A stretch of DNA of 64,000 nt, from NCBI GenBank assembly GCA_964187785.1, contig OZ076409.1, forward strand, positions 8,620,001 to 8,684,000. The letters are read 5' to 3'. The notes below the pieces were generated by a model. That model saw only the letters and a list, made by a program, of their open reading frames with translations. It did not search any database and was not told the DNA's origin. The translations under genes and the position numbers were made by a program. Positions 8,294 through 46,396 of the stretch are shown here, piece by piece. Each line of letters begins with the position of its first letter. Position 1 is the stretch's first letter. The stretch comes from Amphiscolops sp. MND2022 (lineage: Eukaryota).

Positions 8294-11200
8294 CCCCTGC
8301 AAAGTGACATTTGTTCATTGACTGAGGAGACTTCTTTTAAGGGGAGCTATTCGTTTTCCTCTGAAGATGCTGAGAAGTCATCGATGGAAGATCGACTGCT
8401 GGAAAAGAGTTCTGTGTCAATCAATTACTGTGAGATTGGGCCCAGACTACATGGCTTGTCGTCAGCGTACAATTCCTCCACCGGAGAAAGATCCGTTGAA
8501 GTCACCACCACGTCTTCCAGTTACAGCGGGTACACAAAAATAATCGAGAGTTCGGAACCCCTATCTGTGGAAAGCGTATCGAGTAACTGGCACAAAAGTT
8601 CGGTGGCTATTGAGAAAAGGGAAAAAATTACCGATGAAGGCAGTGATACCCATCTGAATCATGAAGGGCGGCCGTTTTTGAACGATAGCTGAAAAAACTG
8701 AAAAAAAACATCTTTCTTGGTTTGTGAAAAACAGTTAGGTTTGGAGCGAAAACGGAGCAAAAATTTCGAACTCTTAAGCAGGGTTATGTTTGAAAACAGA
8801 GATTGTTTCAAAACAGATTCAGTTTTTAATCGGCGCTTTATGAAGTGAAACGCGACTATTATAGTGACTTTTTTTATCCACACGAACTGACCAAAATAGT
8901 TCTTAAAAGTTCTGCAAAATATGATTGCACCAAATTGCACCATTTGGCCTAGCGAACTGAACCAAAAAAGTTTTTCCTGTTTTTCCGCGTAACATACCAT
9001 ACCGGGCGAGACCAAAGGGTCCCCCCTTTCAATTTTTTTCGGCACTGCGAAACTTTTTTCCAGAAATTTTTTTTCCCCAAAGGGTCCCCCCTTCATTTTT
9101 TTTGCTGTTTTGCGTCAGAATGGATGTTGGAAAATCCCAAAGGGTCCCCTTTCAGTTTTTTTGGCACTGTGAGATTTTTTTCCGAAAATAAAATTTTTCC
9201 CCACTTCAATTTTTTGACGTTTTGCGACAGAATGGATGTTGAAAAACCCCAAAGGGTCCCCCTTTCAGTTTTTCGGCATTGTGAGACTTTTTTTCTATTT
9301 TTTTTTCTCTCCAAAGGGTCCATCTTCAATTTCTTTGATATTTTACAACAGATTGGGTGTTTAAAAATCCCAAAGAGTCCCCCCTTCCAGTTTTTCGGCA
9401 TTGTGAGACTTTTTTTCGAAAGTTTGTTTTTTCTCCAAAGGGTTCCCATTTCAACTGCGACAAAAATGTTGACAATTTCGGAAGTGTCCCCCTTTTAGCG
9501 CGCCAGGGGCTCGCGCTAGCGGGCCCCGGCGCGCCATTCGGTCCATTTTTTTTGTTTTTCGATTTTCGAGTACTGTAAATTGACACTTGGAAGTCCTTTT
9601 GCTATTTTTGAGCCTTGGATATGGCGCCGACTTGGGCCGGTCCCGGCTTGTTAAATAAAACAATGTGTTTTTCTTAGCCAGTGAGATTCGATCACATATA
9701 AAACCACAACATACGTAAATGTACAGTTATACATTCGGACCTCAGAAATCGCCTCAATCCACAGAAAATGTCAAAATATGCATTTTCCTATCGCTTCCTA
9801 TCCTTGAATAGTAGCGATGATGCTCTCAAAGATTCTTTGTAAAATTTCCGATATTTTTTGATATTGAATATATTTTTATTCAAAATTCAAGGAATTTAAA
9901 ACAAAGTGTTTTTAAAGTTTAAAACGTTTTCAACATTAAAAACGTTTTTTATTGCAAAGAACGTTTTTAATAACAACCCTGCTCTTAAGGGCTTTATATC
10001 GACAAGAAGGGAACGCTTATTTAGGCCCGAAAAACTGAGGCCCGATAATGAAATGCTATCTGAGGTCCGAAAAGTTTATGCTAGTAATTTGAGGAAACTA
10101 AACAAACAAAAGAATTGAATTGAGACAGTACATGTATTGCTGTTCCTATTCTTGACTTATTTCCAAGCACGTTTGTGTTTAAAGAACAAACTCATCGGGG
10201 CTCAGTTTTTATAATTTCTGGCCTCAAATTACATTCGCTTCGGGCCTCAATTTTTCGGGCCTCAAATATGCTACCCGACAAGAAATGACCATGCTTCATT
10301 CATCATTCTTTGGCACGGATCAGTGAATACTCTTAAGTTTTCGAAAACTGGTTTTTGCTACAAAACCAAACTTCGAATAGTTTGTTGAATTGGGGTATTA
10401 CTTCATGAAGGAAGCGAGAGTGATTCTAGTGGGTGCTACTTTGGAAGTGGAGCTCGGAAAAACTCGCTTCTTCTCGAATTTACGTCAAGGTCAGGGTCAA
10501 GTTTCGAGGACTTATCCAATGACCTCGTGTCAATCCCCGCCGTCCCTCAAAAGACATTGGGTCAGGTCACTGCGAGGTCAGCTCATGTAGAAACAGGCCG
10601 AGAAACCTCTGTGGACGACGGGATCTGTTATGAGAACCAAGTTTCTGCGAGGTCTTTAAATTCCAATGTCGCCGGAAAAGAGGGTTGGTAAAAAACGTTC
10701 TTAAATTAGTCTTTTGATCTAGAGAATGGATCAGTTGAAATTTTAGCCTAATCGATTGTTCGTTCAAAATAACCGGTTACCGGACATCACCAATCGTTCA
10801 GCGGAGAAAACGATTTTGAGCAAATAAATTGTTGCAATGAAATGTTGAGTTGAAATTCAATCGAATTTTCATTACAAAATTAGCTTCCGCGATTTTCAAT
10901 TCGACCGAAAGATATGAAGGAGAATTTCCAAGTCCCAAATAATGTCTTATTTCCGTAAAGTTGTCAGCTTTTCTTCCTTTCATTTTTAAATAGGGGATAA
11001 GTTTCTTTCAACTGGAATAAATTTGAGAAATTGAAAATTTTATTGAATGAAATGGAGAGGAAATGAAAATATTTTGGTTTTTCCCAGTCGGCCGTTTTAG
11101 CGATTTTTGTCAGGTCTATTTTGACCCGTTCTCTGTTGTTTACTCTAAAATAGAAATCCGGAAGTGTGTTTGTTCACGTTGATAACAGTGGATTGTACAC

Positions 11201-14200
11201 AAAATACGATTATACGAAAAATTATACGAAACCCCCAATTTGTTATACGAATTACATGTTATACGAAAATATCATTATTATACGAGTTATACGGAGAATC
11301 GCTTTTTAGCCATTTTGCGTCGATTTTCCCGTATCTGGGTAAAGAAGTGTTTTGAAATTATGAAATTTTTGTGATGAATTTCAAATGAACTGCATTCTGA
11401 AATGGTAATAGGCTATGCGTCATTCGGAAAGGGGGCTATTACGGTCCCCATTTTTTGAAACAATTAACACTTTCCGATAGAAAAATGATCCAAAAAATGT
11501 GCTCCATGCCTTTATACGATATAAGAGGCCAATTATACGAATACACGATATACGAAACGAAACCTTCGATTATACGATTACACGTTATAAGAGGAACTCA
11601 GTATACGACATTACATTGGTTGATAATACCAACTCTACCCACAAAAAGGAGCTGTTCCTTCGTCGAGTAATGTGGAAACCTGTCAGGAGAACAGCGACAG
11701 CAGCAGACCCAGTGCGGGGGGAGAGGGGGCCGTGTCCTTTAGGAGGGGGGTGACTGAAGCCGTGCAGAATCTGCCCAGGATCAGTGAGGTTGATGTGCTA
11801 GAGGTGGCTACTGGTGATAAACAGGGATGTGACTTTTATGCTTAAACCTAAAGACATATTTTGAAATATAGACATATTTCCTAGAAATTAAAAGTTATGG
11901 AAAAATAATCTAGAAATTTATCACAACAATAACAAGACGGGAATATCTAAAAATCACAAGAATAGCGTATATATACAAACCTATCATATCCTCATTAAAA
12001 CATTGGATATCACTTTACCACACTCGAGAGTTTTTTTCACAATTGACTTTGATACTTTCGCCTCAAAGGCAACGATTAACACCTGCTCATTCAAAGTGGC
12101 ATATGATTATTATGCGGAACAATCTTGTAAAAAACTGAATGAATGGTTTTTATTTGACATTTTCCCAAAATTTTTAGACAAATTGGGCCTTTTTTAGTCG
12201 GAGCTTTTCTAGAGAAAAGAGTCGACTATAGTCATGGCTTTTCGTCAGTGTTTTTTTTCTTCATTTTTTTCGATTCACCTGAAGTGACCAAAATAGTTCT
12301 ACAAAATTTTAAATTGCCCCTGTTGGTCCAGGGAACTGAACCAAAAAGGTTTCCCGCGTAATATACAATATCGGATGAGACCAAAAGGTCCCCCTTTTCA
12401 GTTTTTTTTTCGGCATTACGAGACTTTTTTTGGAAAAAATTCTTTAAAGTGTCCCCCTTCAATTTTTTTCGGCATTGTGAAACTTTCCAAAAAAATTTTC
12501 GGGTGCTGTAAAAAATACTTTGACACTTTGAAGTCCTTTTGCTATTTTTGAGCCTTAGATATTGTGCCGACTTGGGCCGGTCCCGGCTTGTTGAAGACAT
12601 TATTATGGACATATTTCGTCCGAACCGAAGTGAAGACATAAAAGTCGCATCCCTGGCGATGACAAGGTGCTCTGCGCTGCTGTCACTGGCACTGGGGGTT
12701 CCGACAGTGTCGTTGTATCCTGCTCCGATATCGACCAGGACTCTAACGACGAAATCGACGAACAGTCCTCCGAAGGTATGTGCAAAGTCTCGTTTTCCTG
12801 GAAAGAAAATGAAAAAAAATCTTTGAACTGTCCGAATTTTTTTCTAAATGATCTATGACAATATTTTTCAATCCTTTTGTACGAAAATGTTTTAGGGATT
12901 TTTTCAGCTTTTCTGGGACATGAAGAGAATAACCAACAAAAAAATTTGTATTTTTCTCTCAAAAAAGCCTCTTTGTTTTAGTGCAAAAAAGTTTAGGATC
13001 TGGTTCGAATCTCCATCAACTCACCATCGCTGTGCTTTGAGCAAGTCCTTCATTCCTAGCTTAGTGGTATAATCTTGACAAAAAAACTTCACCAAAATAA
13101 CATTGCTTCACCACTTGGATGTCATTATGGTCCCATAGCTTGCTATGGGGGGGGGGTTGTAGTATGCGAAAAAGGCACACTTAGAAAAGCAGAACTGCTT
13201 ATTTGGCGTCCACCCCGCTGTAATTGGGAAATTTAACTTACTCTTAAAAATTTTTGTCCAGTTATGTGTATTTTTATTTTTTATTTTCCGCACACATATA
13301 ATGGGGGTGGAAAATCATAATCTGTGTTGCGTATTTTTCCAAATTCTGTCAAATCTCCACGATCTCCATCCACTTCAGTTAGTACTTAAATTAGTTACTT
13401 GGCTCAATTGGTTGTGCGTCTGCTTGGCAGACGCGAGGTCGTAGGTTCGAACCCGTGGTAATGCGTTACATTTTTAGCGGAAATAATCCCGGTTCTTAGC
13501 AGGCGTCTTGTTTCTTATGCCTCGTTCTCGTTATCAGGTACCTCCAACACGACAACCCTGAGTGCTACAGCAGTGACAACCACCTCTTACGGCTCGTCCA
13601 GTATTCCCCTATCCTCGTCTGAGACGACGGAATCGTTTTCCAACATCACTTCCTTGGGGTACATCTCGGACTCCAGCTCAAACCAGCCTTTCACGACCGC
13701 ATCTTCCAAGTTCTTCGACTCACACAGCGCCATAGATGAAGACGAGAAGTCATTGGTGTCCTGCCGAAGTACAACCACCACGATATCCACTTCAAATGCA
13801 GGAATGAGCAAAAAATATTTGGAAAAAAGCAAAAAAAAAAGATTTTTGAAAAAAGTAGATGTCCGTTCTTGACGTGACACTCGTGTTTAGTCGGTGCTTC
13901 ATGAAGTGAAACCCTACTATACTAGTGACTCTTCTTGTTCAATCCACAGGAACTGACCAAAATAGTTCTTGAAAGTTCTACGAAATTTTATGGTCCCAGA
14001 TTGAATCATTTGGCCTAGTGAACTGGACCAAAAAGGTTTTCCCTTTTTCCGCGTAACATACAATACCGGGAGAGACTAAAGAGTCCTCCTTTCATTTTTT
14101 TCGGCATTGCGAGACTTTTTCGATACACATTTTTCGCCAAAGGATCCCCGCTTCATTTTTTGGAGTTTTGCGACAGAATGGATTTTGAAAAATCCCGAAG

Positions 14201-17200
14201 GGCCCCTTCTAGTTTTTCGGCATTGAGATATTTTTTCGAAAAAAAAATTCACCAAAGGGTCCCCTTCAATTTTTTGATGTTTTGCAACAATGGGTGTTAA
14301 AAAATGCGAAAGGGTCCTCCCGGCACGCCATTGCGGTCCAACATTTTGGGTTTTTCAAGTACTGTAGATGAGAATACTTTGACATTTTGAAGTCCTTTTG
14401 CTAATTTTGAGCCTTAGATATGGCGCCGACTTGGGCCGGTCCCGGCTTGTCGAAATACAGTTGTAGCCTGTGTTTCAAAATATCGAATAGGGTAAAGCTC
14501 CATGCGTAAAATTTAGAGATGTGACCCGCTATTCAAACCGCTATTTGACAGCGTTTGTAGTTTCAAAATCGCTATTTCCGCTTATTCATATCCATCGCTA
14601 TAGCGATCTCTACCGCTTTTCCATTCTTCTCTACGTTGCTTAATATAACGTTTTCAAAGTTCGGATGTAACGTTTCCAACGTTTGGATATAACGTTTTTT
14701 GATGTTTTCTCAACCCTGCTCGTACAGCTTCAAGTATGCGGTCCGAGCATGAATACAATTCGAGTACCACCGCTGACAGAACTGCTGACGGAATGTCTCC
14801 TATCGGACTCTCACAGGGCAACGTCAGTTTCAAAATCATGCATGGAGCAGCCACCGAGAGTTCATTTGAGGTGTTCCAAAACGAAAGACTCACTATCCCA
14901 ATGCAGCAGCTGTCAGTTGGTCACGCAAAGGCAGGGTTTTAACATCGCTAATTTTTTCGCTAATCGCTGAACCGCTTATTTCGAATTCGCTATTTCGCTG
15001 AAAAGTTTTTCTCCAAACTATTGAATGTTTGACTTCAAGTTTTTTTTCGAAAATTGAATGATAACTTAATTCAGTTTTTGCGAGAAAAAAGGGAAGCAGA
15101 TTTTCATACTGTGTGGGTTTTACAAAAGTTAAAGCTGGAATTTTTCGAAATTCATTTTGAATCTCTGTGTATACTCTCAAGAAATTTTGATTTTGGACAA
15201 TCTTTTAGTTGCTGCTAATGTAAACGTTAATGAAATCGCTGAAAAATTTTTGCGCGGCCGCTAAATCGCTAATTAGCGGTGTCAAAACTCTGCGCAAAGG
15301 AAAACCAACTATCGAGATCATCCAAACTTGACAACCCACTGATGTTCGAAAACGAGAGAATCCTATCAATAAGCACAGAGTTCCAGTCATCGGGAGCGGA
15401 AAAAATATCGTCAAAGTTGTTCATACAATCCGAAAATGATGACGTAGATAGTGATTCGACGTTAGATGAAGACGCAGAGGATAGCATAAGTTCGAGTTTC
15501 TTCCAGCCTTGTTACTCGGATGATGTGCTAGCAGACGACGAAGATCGGTGCAGGGAATCCAGTTTGGATCTCAAAGGCAGTGATGACCAATTAATTTTTT
15601 GGAAGAAATATCAAACATTTAACGGGTAGACTTTGAATTTAAGCGATCTATTAAATGGATTTTTCCTTGAAAATGGATCGGAAAAAATGAATTTATTCAT
15701 TTTCAGAACCAAGACAAGTCAATCGCAAACGTCAATTCTGCCTTGAGAGTCTATTTCTTCGTTTCTCAGTCAGAAACGTGCCCTCGAAAACATGCGCTTT
15801 GCGATGGCAGGCGAAGGCAAGATGCCGAGGACTGATCTAGCAACCCTCTCTGGATATAAGCTAGCCAATTCAACGGCGTAATGCATACGTTGGAATTGAC
15901 GTGAAATAAAAGGGATCCCAGTAATGGTTTTTAGTCGGCGCTTTTCTAGTGAAAAGTCCCCGACTATTGCAGTGGCTAGTTTTTAGTCGGCGCTTTTCTA
16001 GTGAAAAGTGCCCGACTCTTACAGTGGCTAGTTTTTTTTCGTCAGACTACAATCTCACTCTGATTGGGCCACTTTTCTTACAATCGAAACTACTACTATA
16101 AGGCCAAGTCCGGTCAGCGGAAATTAGTGCAAAAGGGTCCCCCTTTCATTTTTTACTATTTTAACGTAACCTACAATACTGGACGAGACTAAAGGGTCCC
16201 CCCTTTCGATTTTTTTTCGTCACTGTGCGATTTTTTTTTCGAAAATTTTTTAATGTCTCAAAAGAGTCCCCCTTTCGAGTTTTTTGATATTTTGCAACAG
16301 AATATATGTTAAAGCCCAAAGGGTCCCCCTTTTACATTTTTCGGCACTATGCGACTTTTTCTGAAAGAAAAAAATTCAAAAATTTAGTTTTTTTTCAAAA
16401 AAAGTCTTTTGCGCTTTTTGAGCCTTAGATATAGCGCCGACTTTAGACGTTCCCGTCTTGTTTTCTTTTTTTTTCGTCAGACCAAATAGCTCACCCTGTA
16501 TGTACCACTTTTTGTGCATTATGCAGTTTTACCAAAAGTACTCAGCACTTGATTTTGAACACATCCAAAAGCCTATAGCTTGAAATACAAAACCCAGAAG
16601 GGTCCCCCTTTTCCAATTTTTCGGCACTATGAGACTTTCCCCGCCCCTGTTTTCGGCTCTGTGAGCCTTTTTTCATTTTTTTTGGAAATTTTTATCGAAA
16701 TGTCTCCAAAGGGTCCTTCAATTTTTTTGATATTTTGCAACTGTATGGATGTTGAAAAAGTCCAAAGCGCCCCCTTTTACATTTTTTGGCACTATGAGAC
16801 TGTTCAAAATTCTCATTTTTCGTTTTTTTTCAATTTTTTTTAATTTCGGAATTTTTTCATGTCCCCAAAGGGTCCCTCCTTCAGTTTTTTTGATATTTTG
16901 CAAAGGGTCCCCTTTTACAATTTTAATTTAAAAACTTTGCGCTTTTTGAGCCTTGGATAGAGCGCCGAATTTGGCCGTTCGCGGCATGTTGTATATTCAA
17001 TTAATGGAATATTTAAGGGATCCGTTGACCGGATTTTAAATGGGTCCCTTATTTTGATCATCACTGCTGAAAGGTGACTCAGAGCTGGACCATCCGGAAT
17101 TGAAGGGTGACGTGAGTCGTTCAACTACTGATGGCAACCTGAGTAGGTTTGACAATGAACGAAAGCATTCTTCGATGTTGAGTTCTCCCGGTAGCGCAGA

Positions 17201-20200
17201 TGTCTCCATTCTGGGGGATGTCCAGAAGCAAGATAAAGGCGACAGTGAGTTATCTGTGACGTCACCGGCCAACATTGAGAGAAGCTTCAAGGGACCCTCA
17301 CAAAGTGCTACGTTTTTCGCGGCCATCACGCAAAGTTCGTCGAAACATTTGCTGGAGGGTATTAGTCATGATTCAGCCACAGCTGCAGGCACAAACATTC
17401 ATGAGTTGGCGGATATGAGTGACAATTTATCGCCCTTACAGGAGTCAGGTCACGTGATGATTGAGACACGACATCCTGCACAGGTTGCGATATTTTCCGT
17501 TATAAAGAATTTTCCATTTGAAAGAATTCCCGTGTCGAACAACACAGTTATCCAAATTGCGTTAGTTTTAATTTCACCCTATTTGTTTGCGAAGGCGGCT
17601 CTTTTTCCTTTTCCCCGGCACTTTCAAAGAAAAAATATCAACATAAAGGAATATATTTGGCTATATCGTTTAATATTTCGACAAATAAGTCTATTCCTTT
17701 GTTTTGTTGTCTCCACATAAACTCATACTGAGAAAATTTGGCAGCTTCATTTTCAGTCGGCGCTTCATGAAGTGAAACGCGACTATTATAGTGACTTTTT
17801 TTCAATCCACGCGAACTGACCAAAATAGTTCTTGAAAGTTCTACAAAATATTATTGCACCAAATTGCACTATTTGGTCTAGCGAACTGAACCAAAAAGGT
17901 TTGTCTTGTTTTCTCGCGTAACATACCATACCGGGCGAGCCTAAAAGGTCCCCCTTCCAGTTTTTTCGGCATTGTGGGACTTTTTTTGAGAATATTTTAA
18001 TGACTTCAAAGGTTCCCTCCTTCAATTTTGCGACAGAATTATTGAAAAATCCCAAAGTGTGGATTTTTAGCGCCCCAATTCGGTGCAAATTTTGGGTTTT
18101 TCGAGTTTTGTAAAAGAGAATACTTGACACTTTGAAGTCCTTTTGATATTTTTGAGCCTTAGATATGGCGCCGACTTAAGCCGTTCCCGGCTTGTTTTCG
18201 TTCACGCCAAAATACAATTTTGCGGCGAAGTTTATTTTTGCGAATTAGAATAAAGCCGGAAATGTTTTTAAAAAGACTTTTCAATATTAAAAAAGAGTAT
18301 TTTTTTGAAATTACGTGAAATGTTTCATTGGAAAGTCAATTGAGAGCAAATTAATTGCTAAAACAATATCATCTAGAAATGTGTGGGGAAAAAAGTTCCG
18401 CAAAGACATCCTCGGCTTTATTGGAACAGTCAATGAAACTTCGAAACAGTTTTGAGAAAAACATTTAATTTTCAGTGGATGTTTTATCTGTAGTAACTTA
18501 CACAAAAGAAACAAAGTTTCAAGTGTTCACTTGTTCACACTTTCTAATAATTGTTTCATAATTTAATGAAATGGAAAATAATGGCATATTGCGTGAAGGC
18601 AGCAAACTTAGAGCCAGAGGTCACCAACGAAGACTTGTGCAAAAATATCAAACTTGCTGTACTTCTGCAAAATGAATGCACGGCTATTCGTGAACAGAAC
18701 GAAGACTTCATTGTGGACATGAAAAACGTACCGGAAGGAAAATCTGCAAAACACTCCTTCAAAGAGCCCGATTGTGAGGTAGTCGCTCCCAATGCCTCGG
18801 AAATAGTTGAACACGACTTGTATGGGGAAGTAGCTAACCAGAATGAAGACTCATCCCAAACATGTGACATCAATGTCGTTAGACCCAGATGTTCGTCTTT
18901 GGTTACAGGGGGCTGCAACCCACTTGAAAATGCCGACGTAGATTCGTCACCTGCTAAAGTTGACCCTGTAAATTGCGCGTTGGCTTTTGCTGAAACATCT
19001 GAAACTTACTATTCAGCTGTAACTCAACCTTACATCGGCGTGGAAAGTGCCCAAATTCTTAGCGATGAGCTGTTTGAGGAGCAACTAGTCGGTGATAAAG
19101 TCGTCAACAAATCTTCGGTGGTTCAAGTTGATGAATTTTCGAATGATGAAAACCAGAGTTCCGAATCCGAAGAAGCAGAAACATCTCAAAATTTTATCAT
19201 AAAACCCGACAAAGTGTACCGAAGCTCTATGTGCTCAGGAAAATCGGCTGCTGAGACAATGGATATTACGGAAGAAGAGAAGGGATCTTGGGAAGAAATG
19301 CTCCTACAGGCCTCCAATTTCAGTGTGGATGGAAATCAAGTTACCAACGCTTCTTCCAACACAAATACCAGCAACTGCTCCAGCGGGAATAGTTTTTCCA
19401 ACATCATTTGCTCCTTCAACGTGTCAGTTGCCCCCTTCAACAAAGTGGGAGAGCTTTGCACTCTGGGTGTCATAAGTGAAACCAGGGACCGAGAGATTGT
19501 TGTGTGTCGAAACCGAGAAGTCAATGTATTGATGAAAGAAGTTGAAGAAAGTTCTGAACGAGCCGAGAGCGAAGTTGCATTTCATGCAATTGATGCTTCC
19601 TCCAACAAAAAAGTTGTTCCGCTCAAGGGCTCGTTGCCTTTATCAGAAGAAACTCAGAAACTCGAGACCACAGTGAATGCTGGCATTTCAAGATCCGAGG
19701 AACAGCAATCGCTGGAAGTTTTTGAGATGTTCAAAGCCATCGGGGAGACCCATGAAATTGTGGCCAATGATCGAAATGATTCATTCCGAGAGGAACTACC
19801 CTTGTTTTTGCCACTTCCTGAAGACAATGAAGATCAGGATCTGTCTTCCGGCACAGGGCGAGGACTCGATCGGAGTGCGGCAATAACAGTTAGAATAAGC
19901 CCTGTTGAATGTCCTGTTTCTTTGAGCTGCGAAGTGATGAGTTTCCATTTGGGTCAAACTTACGAAGACGATGGAACTACCATTGACCATTCCTGTGAAT
20001 TTTTTTCATGCGATGTTCGGGAATTTGAGATTTCAAAGCAACACAGTACGTCGAACGAACTTCAAGAAATGAAATCCTGTCGGAAAGAAGTTTCCGATGT
20101 TTTCTATGTCGAGGCTTCGGATTTTCGTGACAACAGTTTCGAAAGTGCAGCCTGTGATATGTTGGATTCAGTGGTTCTCGATGGTTTGCCTTGCAATTCT

Positions 20201-23200
20201 CGGAAAACTTCAGAGTTGCTTGCAAATGAAGTGAGTGTCCATGCAAATGGGGGCGAATTCGAAAACGTGTCACAAGCTGAGATTGAATTGGTGAATTCGC
20301 TGAAAGCCGAAATGAACACAATTGAGCATGATGAGTTTCATCCTTCGAAAGCAAAACTTTTCGGCAAAAATCTAGTTCATACCTGCAACATTAAGCCTTC
20401 AGTACTGAAACTGACAGAAGCGCACACTCTTGAATCGTCTCTTTGTGATGTCATAGTAATTTCATCGAGTGAAATCTCAGATGCAGAAATGATCAGAGCG
20501 TGTGAATTTGCCCAGACGCATCAAAACTCCGTGCTAAACTTATCTAGTATTGGTTTGGAAAAAATGGCGAGTGAATTGGAATGGGTTCAGATTCAAGAGG
20601 ATAGTAACTTGAAGATGATTGAACCTTTCATTCAGTTTTCCACACTTACCTGGGTTTATGATCCTGATATTGATCCAGGTACGGAAACAGAATCGCTGGA
20701 GAATTTTGAGCCCCAGCAACCAGTTGGGTCTCCGAGAAGAAGATTCAGATGCGCTTTCCCCAGAAATAATTTCGTGAGATTTAGCCATACAAAAAGCAGA
20801 GTTTTCTCTCAAGTCAATGAGGTTGAAGAAATCAAATGCTTCCGTTTAAGAGCTCCGAGACGAGGAACTTATGGATACTTTGTGCCAGTCATGCCCGATG
20901 ATTTCGACGAGCTAACAATCCGAATGTTTGCATTGTTTGCAAATCCTTCGGTTACTGACGAAGTGACGCCTACTGTACTGAGTGCGTTGGAAGAACCACG
21001 AATTGAACGAACTGATGGATCTATACAGACCCATATAAGTTGCATGGGAAGCATGTATTTCTTTCAAAGTTTATGCCCCACATTTTACGCCCATGATCAC
21101 CGCACAGGCGTTCTTGAGGACATAAGTGAGGAGCATTCATCCGATTTGAGCGGCAGCTCCGAGGCGTCTGTTTCGGTTAGCTTGCATCCAGTTGTAGATG
21201 AGTCATTGAGCACTTTTGATGGCGTCGAAAGCAGCGTGCCTTCGATTTCTTTTTCCGGGACTCTAACTTCGATTAGTGATCGGTTACAAGGAACTGTCAT
21301 GACTCTTGATCAAGGTTCACTTTCAAGTGTGGAAACACCAGTCACCGACATCATTGATGTACTCGATTCTGAATTTACTCTGACTTTTTCGACTCAGGAT
21401 TTAATGCAGTTTGACATCTGTCCTCAAACGATAGAAGAAGCTGCAAGTCTTTCGAAACCCAATGTCAATAACCAGTTTTCTGAAGCTTTGGCGTTATCCT
21501 TAGATGCCAATACCGATCCTGTTGAAGCCAATGAGTCGTTTCATGAAACCAAACCTGTCGTTTTTCGTCGCAAAAACTCAAGTCCTTTCATGGAGTCAAA
21601 AAATGTTTCCGACCTGTTTGAAAATGCGGCTATCAATCCTTGTCGTCAATTGGGGACATCGCCTCGATCTGCATTGAAAATTACTTTAGCTGCCATGGAG
21701 TTGGAATCCAGTTGCGAAATGAAAGATGAGTCATTTGTTTGTAATATGTACGATTATGGGTGTGAAAAACTGGGCGGAATAGACGTGAGTCCTGGATGCA
21801 GTAACACGGACATTGACGAAATCTATCTGAGCTGCAATGGACTTGAGCAAGTGGAACTTTCTCCGCAAGCAGAAAGTGTTGTGTCTTCTTGCAATACTTC
21901 AATGGAGTCTTGCTGCACCGTAGTTCTCAAGTCTGACAACATTGACGACACCAATTTCAACCAATCACAAACTAGTCTGGATCCTCATCCGCAATTCTGT
22001 GATGACAACGTGGAACTAGGAAGCTCTCCGCTTTCTGCTGATCGAACTATAGATTCAATTCCCACTCCAGTGTGTGGAGTTTCCATGGTTTCGTCTCCTT
22101 GCCAAAATTCCAGTCCCAAATTATGCGAGCGATCTTCCAGTATTGTCGAGTCTCGTTTGAAGTTTTCCGTTGTCCCCAACCTGCTCTTGAGCAATAAAGT
22201 TGAAAATGACGTAATTCCGACTGAGTGTGGACAAGTGACGGATGCAGCTTTTTACTCTGAAGAGCTTCAGGTCACTGATGATTCAAAGTTCACCAGATGC
22301 GACCAGTTTGACACCTGCAACCCAGACGTCGCGGGGGACCAAACGTTTTCCAACTTCACCAATTTGGTCTCGGGCGCGAAGCGGGAACTTGTCGAGGATA
22401 AGTTAAGTTCCAATGTCTTCGAAGGAGTGAACAGGCAATGTTCCTTGTACCCAGTGACTATGGAAAATAACTCGTGTCGGGATTCAGAACAAAGCTTCAT
22501 GATAGACAGTCCTTCGCGTTCCAAGGTAATCCCCACTTTCATTCCAAAACCTGAACCTTCCCATACAGAAGTCGAAGGATCTGAAGACTATTCTTCTTCA
22601 GTGGTCAAGTCCAACGGAGTGACATCTTTGGTTACCGAAAACTTTCTATCTAAACAATTCACTCCCAGAAGCCCGCACCTCGAAAACTTTTCTGAGTTTG
22701 ACATGAAAGTGGATTTGAGTTTGATGCCCATCGAAGAATCTCACATTAGTCGTGATTTCTGTTTGGCTAAGAGCAGGTACACAATGAATCGAACAGTTTC
22801 GGACAAACAGTACGACTCTTTTGATCCCGACATGGAGGATCTCCTAATTCGCAGATTCAGTTTTAATACAGGAAAAGGTTAGTTTCCTAGCCACGTATTT
22901 AAATGATTGTACTTATTCGCACTAAATTATTTCTGGTAATAAGGTAATAAAATGGGCGGGAGTTGTTTTTTGGAACAATGCAACAAAAACAATGTGGGAT
23001 ACAGTTTGCGAAATACCGTAAAGCGACAATTCGTCCCAAATTCCAAAAAGCGACAATTGGTCCCAAGCGGCAATTCGTCCCATTTTGAAAAGGCAACAAT
23101 TCGTCCCAATTATTAAAAGCTGCAATTTGTCCCCAATTTAATTGCCAATAAAGACCTTTGTAATAATGGATCCGGAAATATTAAACTTAGAGACAGGTGC

Positions 23201-26200
23201 CAACAATTAATTTTAACATTCCACGTCTAGTGCGTTAAAATGCAACATTTTCTAATTATTGTCACGTGGTTGAATGAATTCATTTGTAGTTGGTTTGATT
23301 ATTTCTTTCGTTTCAACCTTCAAAATGTTGGTAATTAGCTGATCAATTAAACAATTTGGGACGAATTGTCGCTTTTTACAAATGGGACGAATTGTCGCCT
23401 TTACAAAATGGGACGAATTGACGCTTGGGACGAATTGACGCTTGGGACGAATTGTCGCTTTTTGGAATTTGGGACGAATTGTCGCTTGGGACGAATTGTC
23501 GCCCAACCGCGAAATACAGGTTTGCCCTTCGATCAATATCAAAATTATCATCAATACTTCGTCTTTCAAAATTTTTCACAGGGTTTTGACTAGCTATTTT
23601 TTCGCTAAACCGCTTATTTCAAATTCTCTTTTTCACTGGAATAGTTTCTCTCCGAACTACCGAATGTTTGACTTCGAGTATATTTCAAAATGAAATGGTA
23701 ACTTTATTCAATTTTTGAGAGAAAAAAAGTAAAATTTTCCATACTGTGTGCGTTTTACTAGGGTAAGAAATGGAATTTTTCAAAATTCGTTTCGAAACTC
23801 CGTGTATGCTCAAAGCAAATTTTGAATTTCGACAATCTATTATTTGTCGCTAATTTGAATAGCTAATAAAATCGCTGAAAAACTCTTTAATGTTTAACGA
23901 TTACGTAACAAATAACATAAGAGCAAATAACATAAAAACGAGATTAGTCCCATTTAACATAAAAATGAAAATAGTTTCACATAACATAAAAATAAAACCG
24001 AATACCCGGTTAAACAATCGAACTCACGGAATTTTATATGTAATTTTCATACTTTTTTCGGTGAATCTTTTGAATTGTGAATGCCTTTTTTTAGTCGGCG
24101 CGTTTTCCTTTTAAGGAAAAATGCCCGACTATAGCAGTGACCTTTTTTAGTCGGCGCGTTTTCTTTTTAAGGAAAAATGCCCGACTATAGCAGTGACCTT
24201 TTTTTTTCTTCAGACTACAATCCTCACACTGATCGGTCCACTTTTCTTACAATTCTTACAAATCTTAAAATCTTACAATTCTGACTTAGTAAAATTAAAA
24301 TACTTGCGAAGTAGTATTTTTACATCATCTTAGAAACTCAAAGGACCAAAGGGTACGCCCTCCTTAGAGTATTTTCGGCTCTGTGAGACTTTTTTTTCGA
24401 AAAAATTTTTAATGTCTCAAAAGGGTCCCCTTTCTCATATTTTGAGGGTTTTCTCATATTTTGCAACTAAATGTATGTTAATCAATCCCAAAGGGTCCCC
24501 CCTTCTTTATTTTTCGGCACTATGCGACTTTTTTTGAATTTTTTTTTTCAAAAATTACAAGTTTTTTTCCAAAAAAAATGTTTTGCGCTTTTTGAGCCTT
24601 AGATATGGCGCCGACTTTAGACGGTCTCGTCTTGTTTGCTCTTACGTTATTTGGGAATCCACCATTTTCAATTGATTGATTGCGGGATCGTGTCAAAATA
24701 AGCAAACTATCATAATTGCCGCAGTGTTATTCATTTTAGACTTCGCCACACAGGAAATAGAAGGCGGTGCGACCCATCTTGTTGAAGTTGATCATGAAAT
24801 GGGTGCACCGAATGACGAAAGCATCGGATTTGTCGACACCCCTCGCTTCTCTGCAGGTGGCGTTGATGAGCAATTTGATACGTTGTTTGTGAACGACATC
24901 GGTGGCTGTTTGTTTTTGGACCGAAGCTTCGATGTTAGCGACATGGAGGTTGTTACTGAACTAGACGCTTCTCTGCTCAAAACGACAGTCTTGCCATCCT
25001 TGGGGTCTTTCCCAACCAGCCAGGACAGTTGCTCTTTCGTCGATGCGCTTTTGGACGAACACGGAGTGAAGGAGAATGACGTCATGTTTCTCTCTCCCAT
25101 GCCTTCCACAACCTGTTTCCCAAGCCACGATATGTCACCCTGGATTCCCCGCACCTACACCCCTGGAATTTACTCCTCCTATGGCACTGGGTCTGAATGG
25201 ACGGGGACGGAGTATACCAGCAATACTGGCAGTACATATGGTACTACTACTGTTCCCACTACCACCAAATCTAGTGGTCTGTGCGTAATAAGTGAAACAA
25301 CAACCAAACGCAGCAACCCGGTTTTTTATGCCTCAGAACACTTCGAATACAGCAGCAAATCTGACTACAGCAAGTCGAATGATCAAAAGTACGCAGAGGT
25401 TCCCCCACAAAAGGTGAGCAACCACAGTTTCGATAGACCTCTACAAAGCGACGGTGGCACGCCTTGGCCCGAAAGTTACTCCTCTGGAAACGAGATTTGC
25501 AGTTCAGTTTCAACCGAAATGGATATCGAAAAACATAGAACTCCTTTGATACAGGCTCCCAAGGTTATTGACAAAAACATCGCCCCAAGTTCAACTTTAG
25601 TTCACACGCTCTCATTCTCGGAAAAAGAAGATAATGCAAGTCTTTCCAGTAAAGACAAAGACAATTATTCCGGCAAAGGCAAATCATGGCATGGTTTCAA
25701 ATTGTTCCACGATCTCTTTGTTACGGATGATGATAAAAAAGAGAAAAAATTATCTGTCGAAGATCAGGGTTGGCATGCGATTTAAAATTGTTTTTACCTA
25801 ACCTATAAATAAGTTTTTTTTTCGTTTTGGGAACAGGTGTTTGTTACATATTTGGGGCTTTCACATTTTTCAATTGTTTACCTATATTAGAAGCATATCA
25901 GATGTTAAGTCAAGCACATCAGATGTTAAGTGAAGCATATCAGATGTTAAGTGGAGAATGTCAGATGTTAAGTGAATCGTCTCGTCTTTCGTTCCAAATT
26001 TTCAGCCAATCACTGACAACCAAACTGAAAGTGCTTTACAATCAGAAGTCAAGTGAACAATATCAGCATCCAAGTGAGTTAGCAAATAATAATCACCAAC
26101 GACGTTTCCAAATTTAACAAACGCTGACCAAAGAATGCTACATGTACACACAATCGTATGCGGTGTTCGTTCATTCAAGGTCCCATTTCGTTCACATTAG

Positions 26201-29200
26201 TTGAGATTTGCTGTAGCAAGCTAATCAAATTCTATTGGTTGTTGATTCAGTATCTGATGTGCTTCATTTAACGTGGAAACAGTGTATCTTTAAAAATAAA
26301 AACATACAAATTACCAACCCTGCCGAAGATAAACCACCCGTGTCTCCAAAGAATGGAGCGGAGGTAGACCCGAATCAGCGTCAAACCGACCATGGTGTCA
26401 AAATGGGTGTCATCTACGAAAAGGCGAAACTCTTGCCTAAAGTAGTTATTCAGTACCCCAGTAAGGAAAGAAGAAAGACTGGCTCTTTGACTGACAGCAG
26501 CACTGAACCCCCCGGGAACCCAGGGAATCATCCGGGAATCCCCAATTTGTTTGAACCTGGAAAGTTTGATTCGAGTGATTCCAAAAATCCCAATGAAAAT
26601 AATAATAACTTCTGTAGTTATTACACTGCAAGAGAGCACCAATTACCTCCGTCACCCGCTTGTAGATCCTTCACTGTTTTGGATAATCATTCTGGGAAAG
26701 CGTTCGGGGATTCGATTGGTGCTTACCACCAGCCAATCATCGTTGCCGCTGTTCTTCAACCGGATCAAGAATCGTCCATTTTTGACACCACCGGGCGGAC
26801 ATCGACTGTGGATAACAACATCAATCTGAATGCGGTGGGAAGTCCAAACGACGAAGACTTGTATCACTCAGCCGCCGATCATTTGCGCCCAAGTTCGCAA
26901 TCGGTCAGCGAAGGAGAAGGCGGTGGACGTAAAAGCAGAAGAAAAATTATCATCAAAAAACGCATCATCACTGAAGAAAGTTTCGATCTCAGTACTGGCA
27001 ATAGAAGCAGTACCGCAAACTTTGCCGCCAACCCTCGAGAAGAAGCAAATACGGGTGGGATGTCAAAGGAAGGGTCCACTAGCCAACTGGTGACTGCCAA
27101 TACCAACCTGGAAGAATACGAAGGGGAGACGGATCCGGTGTTTTCGCCCACTGTTACTTCCGAGGAGTCATCAAGTTTGAAACAGCCGGCGAATCAACAG
27201 TCCTCTTACAAAAGGACTGTCTCTATTGTGAGGAAAGAGACGAAGGATGAAACTAGTCAAGTCAGTAATCCGGATCAACGTGGAATCGTGTTTGATCTGA
27301 CTGGAGGGAACGTCGATAGTGAAAATGAGAATTTGACCGTTAATTCCGACGACGAAGAAGCGGATGCGGAGTTTCACAGCGTCGAAACTGAAATGCAAGT
27401 GCCGCCTCCTGCAAAGTACCAAACAGTGCCTGCTGCTGTAGACACCATTGAGGCACAAGCCTTGCCCGATTCAGTTCCAGAAGAGGAACCCTTTTCCTCT
27501 CCGATTGCGGATGACGCAATGAGTGCTGGAAATGCGGAAATCATCAGTGCCCGTAGCCAGCAAACCCACTATACCAATTCCTCGTATGAAAATAACTTCA
27601 TAGCCGACGTTCCGGATTCGATGGCGTCGGATTTCCGAGCTCCTGAAACTGGCGAGTCTGTTGCGACAGTTGACGGAGATTACGATGGTAATGGCGACGG
27701 AGGGTTTGACGATGACGTGTGTTCTTGCGAATGCCCGTTTTGTTACTGTCCTGATCAAGGTTGTTAAGCTGTTTTATCCATCAATAAAATACATGAAAAA
27801 AACTTGAATAAAATTATTTTTTAACAAGACGGGAACATCTAACGTCGACGCAATACCTAAAGCTCAAAAAGCGCAAAGTTTTTAAAGATGTAAAAGGGGA
27901 CCCTTTGTGTTTTTTGAAAGTCCAGTTTATTGCAAAATATCAAAAAAATTGAAAGGACCTTTTGGAGACTATAAAAAATTTTCGGAAAAAAAACGAAAAA
28001 TGAGAATTTTGAAAAAGTAGTTCTGTGAAAAAAGTGTCCACTACGCATACATTCTGTTGTCTGACGAAAAAAAATAGCCACTGTAATAGTCGGGCTTTTT
28101 ACCTTTTAACACTGTTTTTTGGACACTTTTCAGTTTTCATGGTCTGACTGTTCAATTTGTTTGCTACTTTTTGTTCACATGTCAGAACGCCTCGTGTGAA
28201 AGTGATATCTGGAAAAATCAATAAAGTGAATGACTTTTATGCTTTATATTCCTTTGTTAAATTTTTGTACAATGAAATAATATTTGGCAACAAATGAAAA
28301 ACTGGTGTGCATCACACATTGTTTTACACGATAGTATTCACAAGAGGAAAAAAACAATGAAATGCAAAAACAGTATATTTCGTTAAAAACATGTTTGAAA
28401 CATTTTCGTGAAAGAAAAACTGTATAATTAACAACGTTGGTGCTGATTCAGAGAGGGAAAACCTCTATGGTCCGCCTTCCCCGAGATACTCTGGCTCGTC
28501 TAGTTCTTCCTGCTCAGATCCCAACTGTTCCGGGCGGTATTCCAGGGGCTCAACCTCTAGTTACTGTTCGGACCCTGAATGCCAAGGTGACGTCAATCAA
28601 ATGCATTATCCCACAAACCAACATGGGTCCTACAGTTTTTCCCAAAGCTCCACTCCCGAGATGGCTTCGTTTTACGTCGAAGACGACAACACTTCTGACA
28701 ATCTGAACTCTTTCAGGCAGTGATGACCATTTTTTTGTTATTTAAAGCTAAATTAAAATGAAAATCATTTAAATATATTTTCATTAAATTTGAATGATTC
28801 ATTTAAATGATTTTTGTGCCATTTAAACGGTTTCTTAAATTTCTTTTTTTGAAGAAGTTTTTAAACTGAATGATTAAATTTATTTCAAAAATTCATTTGT
28901 AGTTTAAGCAACTAAAAGTAGTGTACGAATGTTTCTTGTATCGAGTCTGTTTCTACGGTTCGCCGTAAAAAAACGGAGCCTTTGAAAAAGCTCTCTGCGT
29001 GGGCACGTGACGCGGCAATATGCACAATATGATTAACAGCCAAAATTTTGTTGCTTTGCCAGGACGTTGTAGTTAATTACATGGCATAATCATTCAAATC
29101 TGAAAAATAAGTGGCTGTAATGAAAACACATGAACATTTAAAGAACGTTTAAATTTATATGATTCCTTTAAATGATTTGCCTTGAAAATCAGTTGAATTT

Positions 29201-29683
29201 GATTAATCAATTGAATAATCATTTGAATGATTTATTTAAATGGTCATCACTGCTTTCAGGGAATCGGTCGCTTCGGGACCATCTGCTGGTAATTCGGAAA
29301 ACTTTGTGGTCACGGTCGAAGATATGGATAGTCCTGATCGAGTTAAGCGCCACATACTTTCTGTGGTCCCTGAGATAATGGACCAATCTAGAGTTAGCAA
29401 AACGCGCAGGTTGCATATACATCAAACCAGACGAGTCACTGAAACCAACAGAATTTCCGAGAACGATGATCAATTCGAAGTTTCTCCTGAGGCCAATTAC
29501 TGGCCCCGAGAACAGCATGCCACTAGAGCAGTTAGATCGAGGAAAACCAAACGCTTCTCGGTTTCCGATCTCCCGTCTGAGGAATCAACTGTTACGAGCG
29601 TGCCAACTTCCAAGCAAAATCAACCCCCCGAAATACAACAGCACAAGTCTTCAAGATTCAACATCTTCAGGTGGCGCAAATAG
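8294..29683 (+). CDS. Large multi-exon gene, at least 3,161 aa, Ser/Glu/Asp-rich, probably disordered, function unknown (5' end not determined)
   Basis: Exons 8294-8639, 10411-10683, 11649-11824, 12667-12775, 13538-13801, 14728-14930, 15300-15576, 17074-17483, 18599-22877, 24740-25768, 26329-27759, 28452-28716 and 29260-29683 join in phase (9,486 nt, divisible by 3) and end at TAG. Donors at 11825 and 13802 are uncertain. Confidence 0.75.
8779..9981. mobile_element. Nested hAT-type MITE
   Basis: CAGGGTT...AACCCTG ends with perfect 8-bp TSD CTCTTAAG (8771-8778, 9982-9989). Confidence 0.8.
8823..9652 (+). mobile_element. HINE-like element copy (nested)
   Basis: Full termini; closely similar to 33667-34370. 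Confidence 0.75.
10009..10276. mobile_element. Foldback MITE with target duplication
   Basis: Imperfect TIR of about 37 bp, GGGAACGCTTATTTAGGCCCG / CGGGCCTCAAATATGCTACCC, flanked by GACAAGAA on both sides (8 bp, or 9 bp with the preceding C). Confidence 0.75.
10680..11637. mobile_element. Old MITE forming intron 10684-11648 (GT-AG)
   Basis: GAGGGTTGGTA / TACCAACTCTA inverted ends; TSD decayed; interior has TTATACGA repeats. Confidence 0.5.
11822..12655. mobile_element. hAT-type MITE forming the intron that ends at 12666
   Basis: 19-bp TIR CAGGGATGTGACTTTTATG / CATAAAAGTCGCATCCCTG (1 mismatch); decayed TSD GTGATAAA / GCGATGAC; contains a HINE copy at about 12190-12592. Confidence 0.75.
12995..13245 (+). 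mobile_element. tRNA-derived SINE fragment
   Basis: B-box GGTTCGAATC followed by AGCAAGTCCTTCATTCCTAGCTTAGTGG; homologous to 63160-63592 (minus). Confidence 0.55.
13396..13460 (+). pseudogene. tRNA-like relic / SINE head
   Basis: A-box TGGCTCAATTGG and B-box GGTTCGAACCC; no convincing acceptor stem. Confidence 0.4.
13799..14718. mobile_element. Old hAT-like MITE forming the intron that ends at 14727
   Basis: CAGGAATGAGCAAA / TTTTCTCAACCCTG imperfect inverted ends; TSD not recognisable; contains a HINE at about 13886-14450. Confidence 0.5.
14932..15292. mobile_element. hAT-type MITE forming intron 14931-15299 (GC-AG)
   Basis: 22-bp TIR CAGGGTTTTAACATCGCTAATT / AATTAGCGGTGTCAAAACTCTG; perfect TSD CGCAAAGG; removal gives HAK-ENQL. 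Confidence 0.9.
15578..17066. mobile_element. hAT-type MITE forming intron 15577-17073 (GC-AG)
   Basis: TIR CAGTGATGACCAA / TTGATCATCACTG; TSD CTCAAAGG / CTGAAAGG; removal gives LDLK-G-DSEL; contains tandem HINE copies at about 15927-16991. Confidence 0.85.
17749..18196 (+). mobile_element. HINE-like element copy
   Basis: Both characteristic termini present. Confidence 0.7.
23020..23506. repeat. Foldback element with tandem subterminal repeats
   Basis: Left arm GCGACAATTCGTCCCA repeats; right arm TGGGACGAATTGTCGC repeats (inverted). Confidence 0.7.
23579..23886 (+). mobile_element. Second copy of the 14932-15292 MITE family
   Basis: Starts CAGGGTTTTGAC and is collinear with 14932-15245 (ACCGCTTATTTC, GAATGTTTGACTTC, CATACTGTGTG, GACAATC). 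Confidence 0.75.
24086..24636 (+). mobile_element. HINE-like element copy with duplicated 5' hairpin
   Basis: The 5' unit TTTTAGTCGGCGCG...CCGACTATAGCAGTGACC (about 57 bp) occurs twice. Confidence 0.7.
25765..26322. mobile_element. hAT-type MITE forming intron 25769-26328 (GT-AG)
   Basis: TIR CAGGGTTGG / CCAACCCTG; TSD TCGAAGAT / CCGAAGAT; internal 21-bp tandem repeat (four units, about 25890-25975). Confidence 0.85.
27756..28439. mobile_element. hAT-type MITE forming intron 27760-28451 (GT-AG)
   Basis: TIR CAAGGTTGTTAA / TTAACAACGTTG; TSD GTCCTGAT / GTGCTGAT; intron length equals element + 8. Confidence 0.85.
28718..29252. mobile_element. hAT-type MITE forming intron 28717-29259 (GC-AG)
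   Basis: Perfect TIR CAGTGATGACCATTT / AAATGGTCATCACTG; perfect TSD CTTTCAGG; removal gives NSF-R-ESVAS. Confidence 0.9.
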
Positions 29684-35466: not shown

Positions 35467-36502
35467 AAATTTAAAATAAACTGAGATCAAAGGGTACCAC
35501 GCCAATTTTTTTCGGCAATGTAAAAAATTAAATATATTTATCTGAAAGTCCTTATGGTTTTTTTGATGTTTCAATCAAGAAACAGCGTTTTCTGTGCTCT
35601 ATCAAGAATTTTGTGCAAATTTTCAAGACGGCTCAAATCATCTGGCATTGATTAACTTTTTCAACCGACTTGGTTGGCACATATTTCCGGAATTCACATA
35701 ACCATTGGCGTGTCACGCTGTTTAGGGCTAGATAAGCTTGACAAGTAGTTAGTGGAAGAGGTGCGATGAGAACAAGTCGGGAACGGCCCAAGTCGGCGTC
35801 ATATCTAAGGCTCAAAAGTAGCAAAAGGACTTCAAAGTGTCAAGTATTCTCTTTTACAGAAACCCGAAAAAACCCAAAAGTTGGACCAAATTGGCGCGCT
35901 AAAAGGGGGAACCTTTCGGATTTTTTAACATCCATTCTGTCGCAAAATATCAATGTATCTGACTGGCCCTCTTTTTGTAAAGACTTTCAATCACGTCGCT
36001 TGTTTGGCAAGACAATTCGCCTAGTTAGCATGCGGGGTGGGGAAAACATGATTCATGGGTTCGAATCCCGCTCTGGTATAATGTTTTTAGGGTTTACGTT
36101 TTCAGCACTGTGCCAGTTTTTTTTTCGAGAACGTTCCTCTAATTTGGGTGTTTTGACGTTTAAACTTTGAAATAAAAGGTTTTTCGAGCTCGAAGGCTCC
36201 CTTCTAATAACTTTCGCACTGTGAGATTTTCCAGAGTTTTGCTGGAAGCCTTAATTCGATGCTATCAATGGTTGAAAACGATTATATTTTATAATTTTTA
36301 TAATTAAGCATCAAAAAGGGTTTCTTTTCAATATTTGACTGTAATTCCTAAATCGAAACGACTTTCGTAATGTAATCGCATGAGCATGAAACTCGGGTTG
36401 CATCAAAATAATTGCTTGTTTTTCAGAGCCCCAAAGGCCCCCCAATACCGAATTGTTTTTCCCAGTTTACGTTTCCTGTTTTTTCAGATAGAAGTGGTCC
36501 AA

Positions 36503-39500: not shown

Positions 39501-40505
39501 AGAGGAGATTCAGATTACAGAACAGTGGAATTGGTCATCAAAAATCAAGATTCATTCGATACGTGGAAAAATTTGGTTGACAAAGTTTTGGAAGTAAACT
39601 GGCTTAAAGAAAGCAATCACCACAAAGTAACTCTGGAATCTTTCGAAGACGTCGCTTTCTGTGTTGTTTCTGGGAAGATCTTGAAGGGTAGTTACAGTCA
39701 GGGTTACCAATGCTCAAAGTGTAAAGCGTGTTTCCTCGATTTGACAAGTCTCCGAAACTCCAAACCTTGTCAGAGTTCCCCGGCTACTTCTTGCAGCAAT
39801 CTTCCTGCTCTGAGAAGCTTTTTTGAGAACCACAGTTTCACAGAAAACAAAGCCCAAGTCCGCCCAACCTCACCGACTATATGCAAGGATCCTGAAAACA
39901 TAGATCTTACATCTATGACCAACCTTATTCTCGGGAGTCTCGATGAACTCTCAGAGTATCCCTGGTTCTGCCCAATCAAGAACCGAAAAACTTCCTACAA
40001 AGTTTGTTCACTGCTCCCTGAGAACACCTTTTTGGTTCGAAGAAGCGAAAACGATAGAAACTCGGCCGCTCTCATGATCAAACATAAAACGAAAGTTCAC
40101 AATATGAAGATCACTGTTTGGCCTCAAACTGGTTGTTGCGGGCTGACACAACATTTGACCTTCTCAAGTATCCCAAAACTGGTCGAGAACTTCCAAACCA
40201 ATTCTCTTTCAACCTGCATCCCAGAATTACAGACGACTCTCATTTTTCCATTCAAGGAAGGCTTGAAAAGGATGAAAAGCTCGTTGGATTCTTCAAAACA
40301 TCAGAGTTTAGCTTTTTTGAAGAGATCAGCCTCCGTTTGTATAGAGAACAATTGTTGTGAGTTGCAACCGGGTGACATTGTGATTGTTCAGTTGCAGCAA
40401 AATGATCCCAAATCTTCCAGAGTTGAAGGGTTTGTCGAAACAAAAGCAGGATCTTTCAAATCACATGAATTTTATCTTCCGGCTGACATTCTTGAACCAA
40501 TTTAG
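36503..40505 (+). CDS. vav: Vav-like Rho/Rac guanine nucleotide exchange factor (CH - acidic - DH - PH - C1 - SH2 - SH3-like), divergent
   Basis: Segments 36503-36787 (DLWEKCCEWM...ALKDGSALCYLL, CH), 37225-37390 (DLFEA...VFLALSSLS) and 38413-40505. The last has DH (VPFQHVLRYQLFF), C1 (GYQCSKC) and SH2 (YPWF...TFLVRRS...FSSIPKLVENFQ). Intron 37391-38412 is GT-AG, phase 1. Confidence 0.85.
36788..37216. mobile_element. hAT-type MITE inserted in the vav CH-domain coding sequence
   Basis: TIR CAAGGGTGTT / AACACTCTTG; TSD ATTACATG / ATTGCATG. Confidence 0.8.
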
Positions 40506-43362: not shown

Positions 43363-43737
43363 ACACGGAAACGTGTGTTGTGAGGCACTAGTTGCGTAGC
43401 GAAGCAACTAGGAGAAAAAGACAGCTTAGCGAAAAGAGATTCACCACGGAAACGTGTATCAATACAGGCGCTAGTTGCGTAGTGAAGCAACTAGGAAGGA
43501 AAAGACAATCTAAGGGAAAGTAACGGAACACGGAAACGTGTAAAACAGGCACTAGCTGCGTAATAAAGCAACTAGGAAGGAAAGGCAACCTAGAGGAACG
43601 TAAGTAACACGGAAACGTGTAGAACAGGCACTAGCTGCGTAGTAAAGCAACTAGGAAGGAAAGGCAACCTAGAGGAACGTAAGTAACACGGAAACGTGTA
43701 GAACAGGCACTAGCTGCGTAGGAAAGCATCTAGGAAG
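43363..43737. repeat. Tandem array of about five 80-bp double-hairpin units
   Basis: Each unit has CACG-GAAA-CGTG and CTAG(T/C)TGC-N8-GCAACTAG. Confidence 0.85.
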
Positions 43738-46152: not shown

Positions 46153-46396
46153 CTGAAAAACAGAGGAGCCTTGTTAGGCCATTGGTGATGGGAAATGACC
46201 TGGAGAGAGAAATAAAATGCAACTATTTGAAGTTATTTCTTTTTTGTATAGTTTTTGGAACGTTTGGTGGAATGTGGCATGCTGTGCAGTGGCGGCGAGT
46301 TGAAATCGGTTAGTTCAGAAGGTATTGAGGAATTACACAGGGGTTCCGCCAATCGCTGTGTGCGTGTACTTGCGCGGAGATTGTATGGTCTGTTTA

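Follow-up and report, generated by a model that had tools for sequence, protein, structure and literature searches.

Ordinary hAT-type MITEs as a probable source of recent introns in one large animal gene

The window, by which we mean the whole stretch of DNA analysed here (64,000 nucleotides of contig OZ076409.1 from Amphiscolops sp. MND2022), holds a plus-strand gene broken up by four hAT-type MITEs, each flanked by an 8-bp target duplication that ends in AGG. In all four, the element plus 8 nt is taken out when the left cut falls just ahead of the duplication's final G and the right cut just behind the AG at positions 6-7 of the right copy. Most likely these sites work like a class-12 introner and represent real and recent intron gain, well above chance expectation, by ordinary hAT MITEs under purifying selection.

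The explanation that we favour as a whole, with moderate confidence, is that hAT MITEs are filtered by in-frame splicing, with AGG targets offering a route via a GC donor. Non-autonomous elements mobilised in trans would insert with an 8-bp duplication and a sequence starting CAG, only a minority of copies lying in coding exons. Where the gene is needed, an insertion into an exon would persist only if the spliceosome removes it in frame. An AGG target would work best, the left copy's final G joining the first C of the TIR to form AG|GC and the right copy supplying AG|G; loss of the element plus 8 nt would then restore the old codons in any phase. Four insertions would have come through this filter in a single coding region that is very large and under weak constraint, and others would have passed via different in-frame routes.

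The elements and their host gene

The elements are classed as hAT-type MITEs by their 8-bp duplications, short TIRs starting CAG, lack of coding capacity and many copies. hAT TIRs start (C/T)AG, and hAT target sites are expected to carry T at position 2 and A at position 7; among 23 distinct full family-A copies, T occupies position 2 in 28 of 46 ends and A position 7 in 26 of 46. TIR ends number 2119 for family A and 416 for family B in the 1.07-Gb genome. Fragments of hAT transposase are plentiful there: of 2215 candidates, 150 were scored as matching the hAT dimerisation domain, and an autonomous partner with the same TIRs may be among them. The four insertions come from at least two TIR families and probably three. 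The features of the gene are as follows.

8300..29683, + strand: host gene model of 13 exons, 12 introns and 3,141 codons, without a fixed 5' end
8640..10410, + strand: putative GC-AG intron from E1, 1771 nt, phase 1
8641-10403: E1 element, old; duplications GATGAAGG / CATGAAGG, 7/8 identical; right TIR decayed
8779..9981, no strand: MITE nested in E1, duplication CTCTTAAG; non-exonic control
11822..12655, no strand: E3, exonic MITE with Ac-like TIR CAGGGATG and decayed duplication
14924..14931, + strand: left target duplication of E4, CGCAAAGG; its last G would be the first base of the intron
14931..15299, + strand: putative GC-AG intron from E4, 369 nt, phase 0, donor AAG|GCAGGG
14932..15292, no strand: E4, 361-nt hAT-type MITE of family A, ends CAGGGTTTTAAC.. 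/ ..GTCAAAACTCTG (inverted ends CAG...CTG)
15293..15300, + strand: right target duplication of E4, CGCAAAGG; AG at positions 6-7 is the putative acceptor
15577..17073, + strand: putative GC-AG intron from E5, 1497 nt, phase 1; missing in ortholog
15578-17066: E5 element, family B; duplications CTCAAAGG / CTGAAAGG, 7/8 identical
17484..18598, + strand: GT-AG intron missing in ortholog, with decayed TIR-like ends and its acceptor in an AGG-ending 8-mer; MITE origin uncertain
25765..26322, no strand: E6, exonic MITE without AGG; duplications TCGAAGAT / CCGAAGAT; splice sites predicted
28717..29259, + strand: putative GC-AG intron from E7, 543 nt, phase 2; missing in ortholog
28718-29252: E7 element, family B; perfect duplication CTTTCAGG twice; TIR 15/16

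A preliminary description of this DNA had noted the pattern four times. All four elements are real, with duplications that are perfect at E4 and E7 and match at 7/8 positions at E1 and E5; E1, with its decayed right TIR, was spotted by eye and then checked. Its reading of frame-preserving removal in phases 0, 1 and 2 agrees with the phases at E1, E4, E5 and E7 (1, 0, 1 and 2) and with the open flanks; stop-free frames upstream and downstream of the emptied sites span 465/279, 228/327, 303/645 and 306/420 nt in the same order.

Two further exonic MITEs in the gene, E6 and E3, were absent from that description and lack AGG. E6 sits between two long frames, and its best near-junction pair runs from a TIR-internal GT at 25769 to the AG that occupies positions 5-6 of the duplication, at 26328, which would add 6 nt, or two codons. 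E3 has no scarless splice pair and stays in frame only via flanking GT and AG sites, with a loss of 18-36 nt. The rule proposed for exonic copies thus describes four of the six in this gene, while E3 and E6 need other sites; AGG is one route among several and not the rule. The companion statement that non-exonic duplications do not end in AGG is correct for the MITE nested in E1, that one element (8779-9981) making up the window comparison. In introns 10684-11648, 13769-14727 and 17484-18598, the ends or the sequence close to them resemble decayed TIRs of the CAGG type with no matching duplication, and these three were excluded from the exonic count of six; up to 9 of the 12 introns in the host gene may be MITE-derived. 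A GA donor considered near 13801 proved unneeded, as the GT donor at 13769 keeps the frame. An abundant interspersed repeat of ~120-nt units with a AAAGGGTCCCC core fills many introns in the window (e.g. 8870-9650 and 16130-16990) and is also nested in E1 and E5.

Once the 12 introns are removed in silico, the model reads as a single open frame. Its joins comprise four scarless GC-AG pairs, one pair via a TIR-internal GT and seven other GT-AG pairs picked by the analyst. The predicted protein is rich in Ser, Glu and Asp; six exon frames gave no match in a Pfam scan, and exon 26322-27764, used as query for a paralog with an empty site, matched itself only. A gene that is dead, or whose long form is not made through truncation or skipping, would let the elements stay in and would fit a protein without domain match, an exon without paralog and an exon set selected for openness. 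We consider this quite improbable. Blocks of 4.3, 1.4 and 1.0 kb are open without any choice of exons, the last exon and C-terminus are conserved in a relative, and selection for AGG is not expected in a dead gene. Downstream of E4, 8,112 coding nt contain no stop, against means from simulated neutral drift of 7 at 3% divergence (minimum 1 in 200 runs), 12 at 5% and 29 at 12.9%, the last value being the distance of E4 from its family majority (family median 3.4%). The host gene is most likely alive and under purifying selection. From the open frames, the 0 stops where 7-29 are expected and the conservation in the ortholog, we infer that the elements very probably leave its mRNA.

Orthologous ENA proteins, presumably single frames on genomic contigs of 95-229 kb, cover the sites of E5 and E7, not those of E1 and E4. 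Protein P0126 from a related species is 45% identical, has the same C-terminus and shows no interruption at E7. P0132, an 879-residue frame of this relative whose contig equals those of P0129 and P0124 in length, starts inside the exon after E4 and runs through E5 and the next intron, spanning the exons on both sides. Same-species proteins from two contigs read into E5 and E7; one of the two at E5 was read directly and the other is a member of its 90% cluster. Since the relative has no intron at either site, E5 and E7 are, on this alignment evidence, most likely recent intron gains in a conserved gene. The P0132 frame ends, by eye, apparently where the window exon (18599-22877) continues, and the giant exon may carry a separate break in the relative.

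Choice of splice sites

For a reference set, introns of axonemal dynein genes, whose best relatives are animal, were resolved via protein homology. From 58 derived junctions, 43 were chosen by overlap and position, 41 were fetched and 37 were counted, after one unresolved junction, one non-intron, one junction without a canonical in-frame donor and one doubtful case were dropped. All 37 donors are GT, and the acceptors are CAG (23), TAG (12) and AAG (2). One dynein intron (L121, G000:C7:65116575-65116647) shows CAG|CTACAT in place of GT at the expected donor, which may be a sequencing error, a broken allele or a non-canonical donor.

We regard it as very likely that the four elements are spliced out, and have good confidence that the AG of the right copy serves as acceptor. 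GC would probably be the main donor at most of the four sites, a claim that we make with some reserve, and the scarless join through a junction-spanning GC donor is likely. Under a matrix built from the 37 dynein introns, which carries no penalty for GC, the scarless pair ranks best among in-frame pairs at E4 (donor score 2.8) and E7, second at E1, where a GT 42 nt upstream wins, and third at E5.

A less probable explanation, though one to be taken seriously, is splicing from canonical GT donors, the duplication giving the acceptor only and the protein keeping a small in-frame scar. The GT could be the one inside the TIR of CAGTG elements (positions 3-4; +3 nt, needing only AG at positions 6-7; candidates at 8643, 15580 and 28720) or a cryptic site upstream in the exon (-15 or -42 nt). 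In-frame GT donors with a +5 G do lie upstream of E1 (42 nt, at 8598), E4 (15 nt, at 14916) and E5 (15 nt, at 15562). The uniform GT of the dynein donors, which include GTTGGT twice and GTGATG once, agrees with this explanation, as does the probable use of the TIR-internal GT at E6. At E5, the ortholog alignment favours the -15 join (score 262, against 247 for the scarless join). Acceptor +1 is G in 22 of the 37 dynein introns, and part of the final G of the duplication is therefore explained without a GC donor.

Several observations speak against GT donors. With scores of -3.8 to -4.3, the TIR-internal GT of CAGTG elements falls short of all real donors, and CA|GTGATG has neither -1 G nor +5 G, a state found in 1 of 37 real donors. 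In the CAGGGT TIR of E4, joining the inner GT to the AG at positions 6-7 shifts the frame, and the same holds at L050, an exon-like copy described below. Only 23% of exon positions have a usable in-frame GT in the 45 nt before them, and cryptic donors would leave the AG at positions 6-7 unfixed. At E7, the available GT sites score -4.3 (+3 nt), -3.7 (-90) and -2.2 (-180), and the last would lose residues conserved in the ortholog. The scarless join at E7 aligns to P0126 without a gap (SFR|ESV, score 300), while the +3 rival needs one (289).

Both kinds of predicted site are weak. Of 9 positions, the GC donors have 4-5 in agreement with U1, where 36 of the 37 real donors have 5-8, and in animals a GC donor usually depends on near-perfect surrounding sequence. 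Three of the four acceptors are AAG without a pyrimidine tract, scoring -1.8, -8.4 and -7.2 against -1.1 for the weakest dynein acceptor. This weakness would suit a requirement for extra help, either from TIR pairing in the pre-mRNA that joins weak sites or from a variant U1 pool that tolerates them, and 13 of 20 U1 copies do have altered 5' ends, six of them complementary to AAG|. We judge such help improbable: the right TIR of E1 has decayed, yet the frame is open, and a G opposite +2, the complement to GC, occurs in 0 of the 20 U1 5' ends read from 23 copies. A GC-specific U1 was accordingly dropped as a candidate for those 20 of 23 copies.

The U1 5' ends (L192-L211) form an observation of their own. 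Among the 13 non-standard ones, six pair with AAG|GT, three with a +3 U (GTTAGT), two with GTTTAA and one with a -1 A, and one is changed opposite +6. T occupies +3 in 13 of the 37 dynein donors; judged from these sequences, the U1 pool may be matched to the range of donors in use. Our literature search on a diversified U1 pool found no paper.

AGG targets across the genome

The preliminary description had proposed a selective filter and not a target preference, and had named an equal AGG bias in intergenic copies as evidence to the contrary. Across the genome, AGG precedes only 2.7-2.9% of TIR ends (58 of 2119 in family A, 2.7%; 12 of 416 in family B, 2.9%), close to the 2.3% predicted by the family-A target logo. 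At a third TIR it precedes 13 of 783 matches, about half of which are chance matches, giving about 3%. In the host gene, AGG in sense orientation is found at four of the six exonic MITEs with recognisable ends. The probability of at least four among six to eight is 8e-6 to 4e-5 at a 2.7% background, up to 4e-4 at 5%, and 2e-5 to 2e-4 when adjusted for exon composition (counts up to 9 were also computed), all of these values being weakened because the gene was chosen with the pattern already known. Target preference can thus be set aside as the cause, and the proposed filter gains support.

That transposases favour AGG-ending targets, or that the four cases arose by chance, is largely refuted by these counts, and we hold it to be very improbable. 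AGG accounts for 58 of 145 AG-N ends, and the AGG duplications of family A show a plus-strand excess (45 vs 13; mirror pattern 34 vs 20); both would suit a preference. Against it, position 7 of the target logo is A and not G (26 of 46 ends), and three families show AGG at frequencies of 2.7%, 2.9% and about 3%. As a small control, coding-sequence insertions in two dead-looking genes (three insertions) lack a sense AGG. One is a RING/B-box gene with an upstream in-frame stop and a family-A insertion (L002/L003; one insertion duplicated, 3.3 kb apart), and the other is a BTB_2 gene (L060) with two hAT-type insertions.

The strand excess itself has P = 1e-4 and its mirror pattern P = 0.03. Little or no such bias appears elsewhere, with counts of 38/34 for kinase motifs and 49/38 for AGH ends; strand counts in families B and C are 8/4, 12/12 and 7/6. 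Gene-strand bias was ruled out as the cause by the kinase motif (38 vs 34).

A strong excess of GC-AG introns had also been predicted, and the dynein introns run counter to it: GC donors occur in 0 of 37 (upper 95% bound 7.8%). A TIR with duplication is likewise found in 0 of 37. Putative GC-AG pairs at 4 of 12 introns in the host gene stand against this 0 of 37 at P = 0.002. Among the other AGG copies examined (39 of 57 in family A and 1 of 10 in family B), L050 alone is exon-like, under a crude test in which many copies had no clear second end and short exons could be missed. L050 shows the same anatomy in a GC-rich open frame (GC 0.53 and 0.55, frames of 150 and 213 nt), with the scarless pair best and an in-frame TAA in the right, putatively intronic, copy only; a Pfam scan of its two frames gave no match. 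A duplication ending in AGG next to an element starting with C is found at the four window sites and at L050.

One family making many introns genome-wide is not what we see: by the same crude test, family A has two exon-like AGG copies among 40 of 58 examined, and the term introner, taken to mean a mass producer of introns, does not fit these families. A strong general excess of GC-AG introns is not supported; a modest one may be confined to giant exons. A bolder and rather unlikely extension is that any hAT MITE landing on AGG is a ready-made intron, giant low-complexity exons being cut up by weak GC-AG introns, family after family, with the aid of TIR pairing or a diversified U1 pool. Were this true, hundreds of G-CAG(T/G)G introns would be confined to giant exons. 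They would form a stage before true introners that is overlooked by searches for sequence-similar intron families, and such weak GC-AG introns would lie beyond what a standard animal spliceosome is expected to accept.

Relation to known systems and other features of the window

The splice geometry is already in print and is not a new mechanism. In introner-like element class 12 of Polarella glacialis, a dinoflagellate with frequent GC and GA donors, the GC donor arises where the closing G of an NNAGG duplication meets the first C of the element; the 196 introns of this class have a 5-nt duplication, mostly GC donors and an acceptor from the duplication (bioRxiv 10.1101/2020.10.14.339549). The present elements share the duplication-derived acceptor and the AGG-plus-C donor geometry, their GC donor use being predicted from the sequence. 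They differ in their 8-nt duplications, in an animal host whose tested introns are all GT-AG, and in that about 97% of MITE ends lack AGG. Within supplementary file 8 of PMC12130899, P. glacialis fam9 is a hAT family with CA/TG termini, an 8-bp duplication and 980 introns (gc 629, 'co-opt both'), Trifolium repens fam4 is a hAT family with gc in 6 of 7, and fam1 of the tunicate Styela clava is a hAT-Charlie family (8-bp, 'co-opt both') with 6 copies, listed as gt 2, non-canonical 4 and gc none. Families there are defined by multiple introns, whereas here each family yields one to few introns beside hundreds of other copies. PMC9860276 describes introner splice sites as wholly or partly recruited from the duplication. 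Compared with the general introner model as outlined in PMC9860276, PMC11282704 and PMC3443670, the proto-splice site here is AGG only and the element gives the +2 base.

Our literature search found no animal case of AGG-plus-C hAT introns, within an incomplete coverage in which supplements may hold one. What is new is the setting: the host is an animal whose introns are of the ordinary GT-AG kind, and the MITEs that pass the filter are ordinary too. Documented recent intron gains are, to our knowledge, scarce in animals; this gene shows several, and for two of them a relative has the site without the insertion. The filter can be seen from both sides, the same MITE families standing at background AGG elsewhere and without AGG in genes that look dead. 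The gene thus offers a testable case in which ordinary hAT MITEs would need no special adaptation to turn into introns, with large tolerant exons as the venue. Maize Ds elements, also hAT with an 8-bp duplication, are reportedly spliced from exons. The start of E3, CAGGGATG, matches in 8 bases the Ac/Ds TIR C/TAGGGATGAAA as given in PMC3260210.

Elsewhere in the window, a Vav-like gene lies on the plus strand at 36371-40505 (CH/RhoGEF/C1/SH2), with RhoGEF, C1 and SH2 in a single 725-codon frame; it is 56% identical to the copy in the relative, with no other match at E 1e-10 among the 8000 candidates scored. The minus strand at 43710-53112 holds the frames of a Gypsy-type LTR retrotransposon (gag, protease, RT, RNase H and integrase). 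A Macro domain is weakly matched (E 0.003) in the part that separates RNase H from integrase, and a DnaJ frame is found nearby at 42171-42725.
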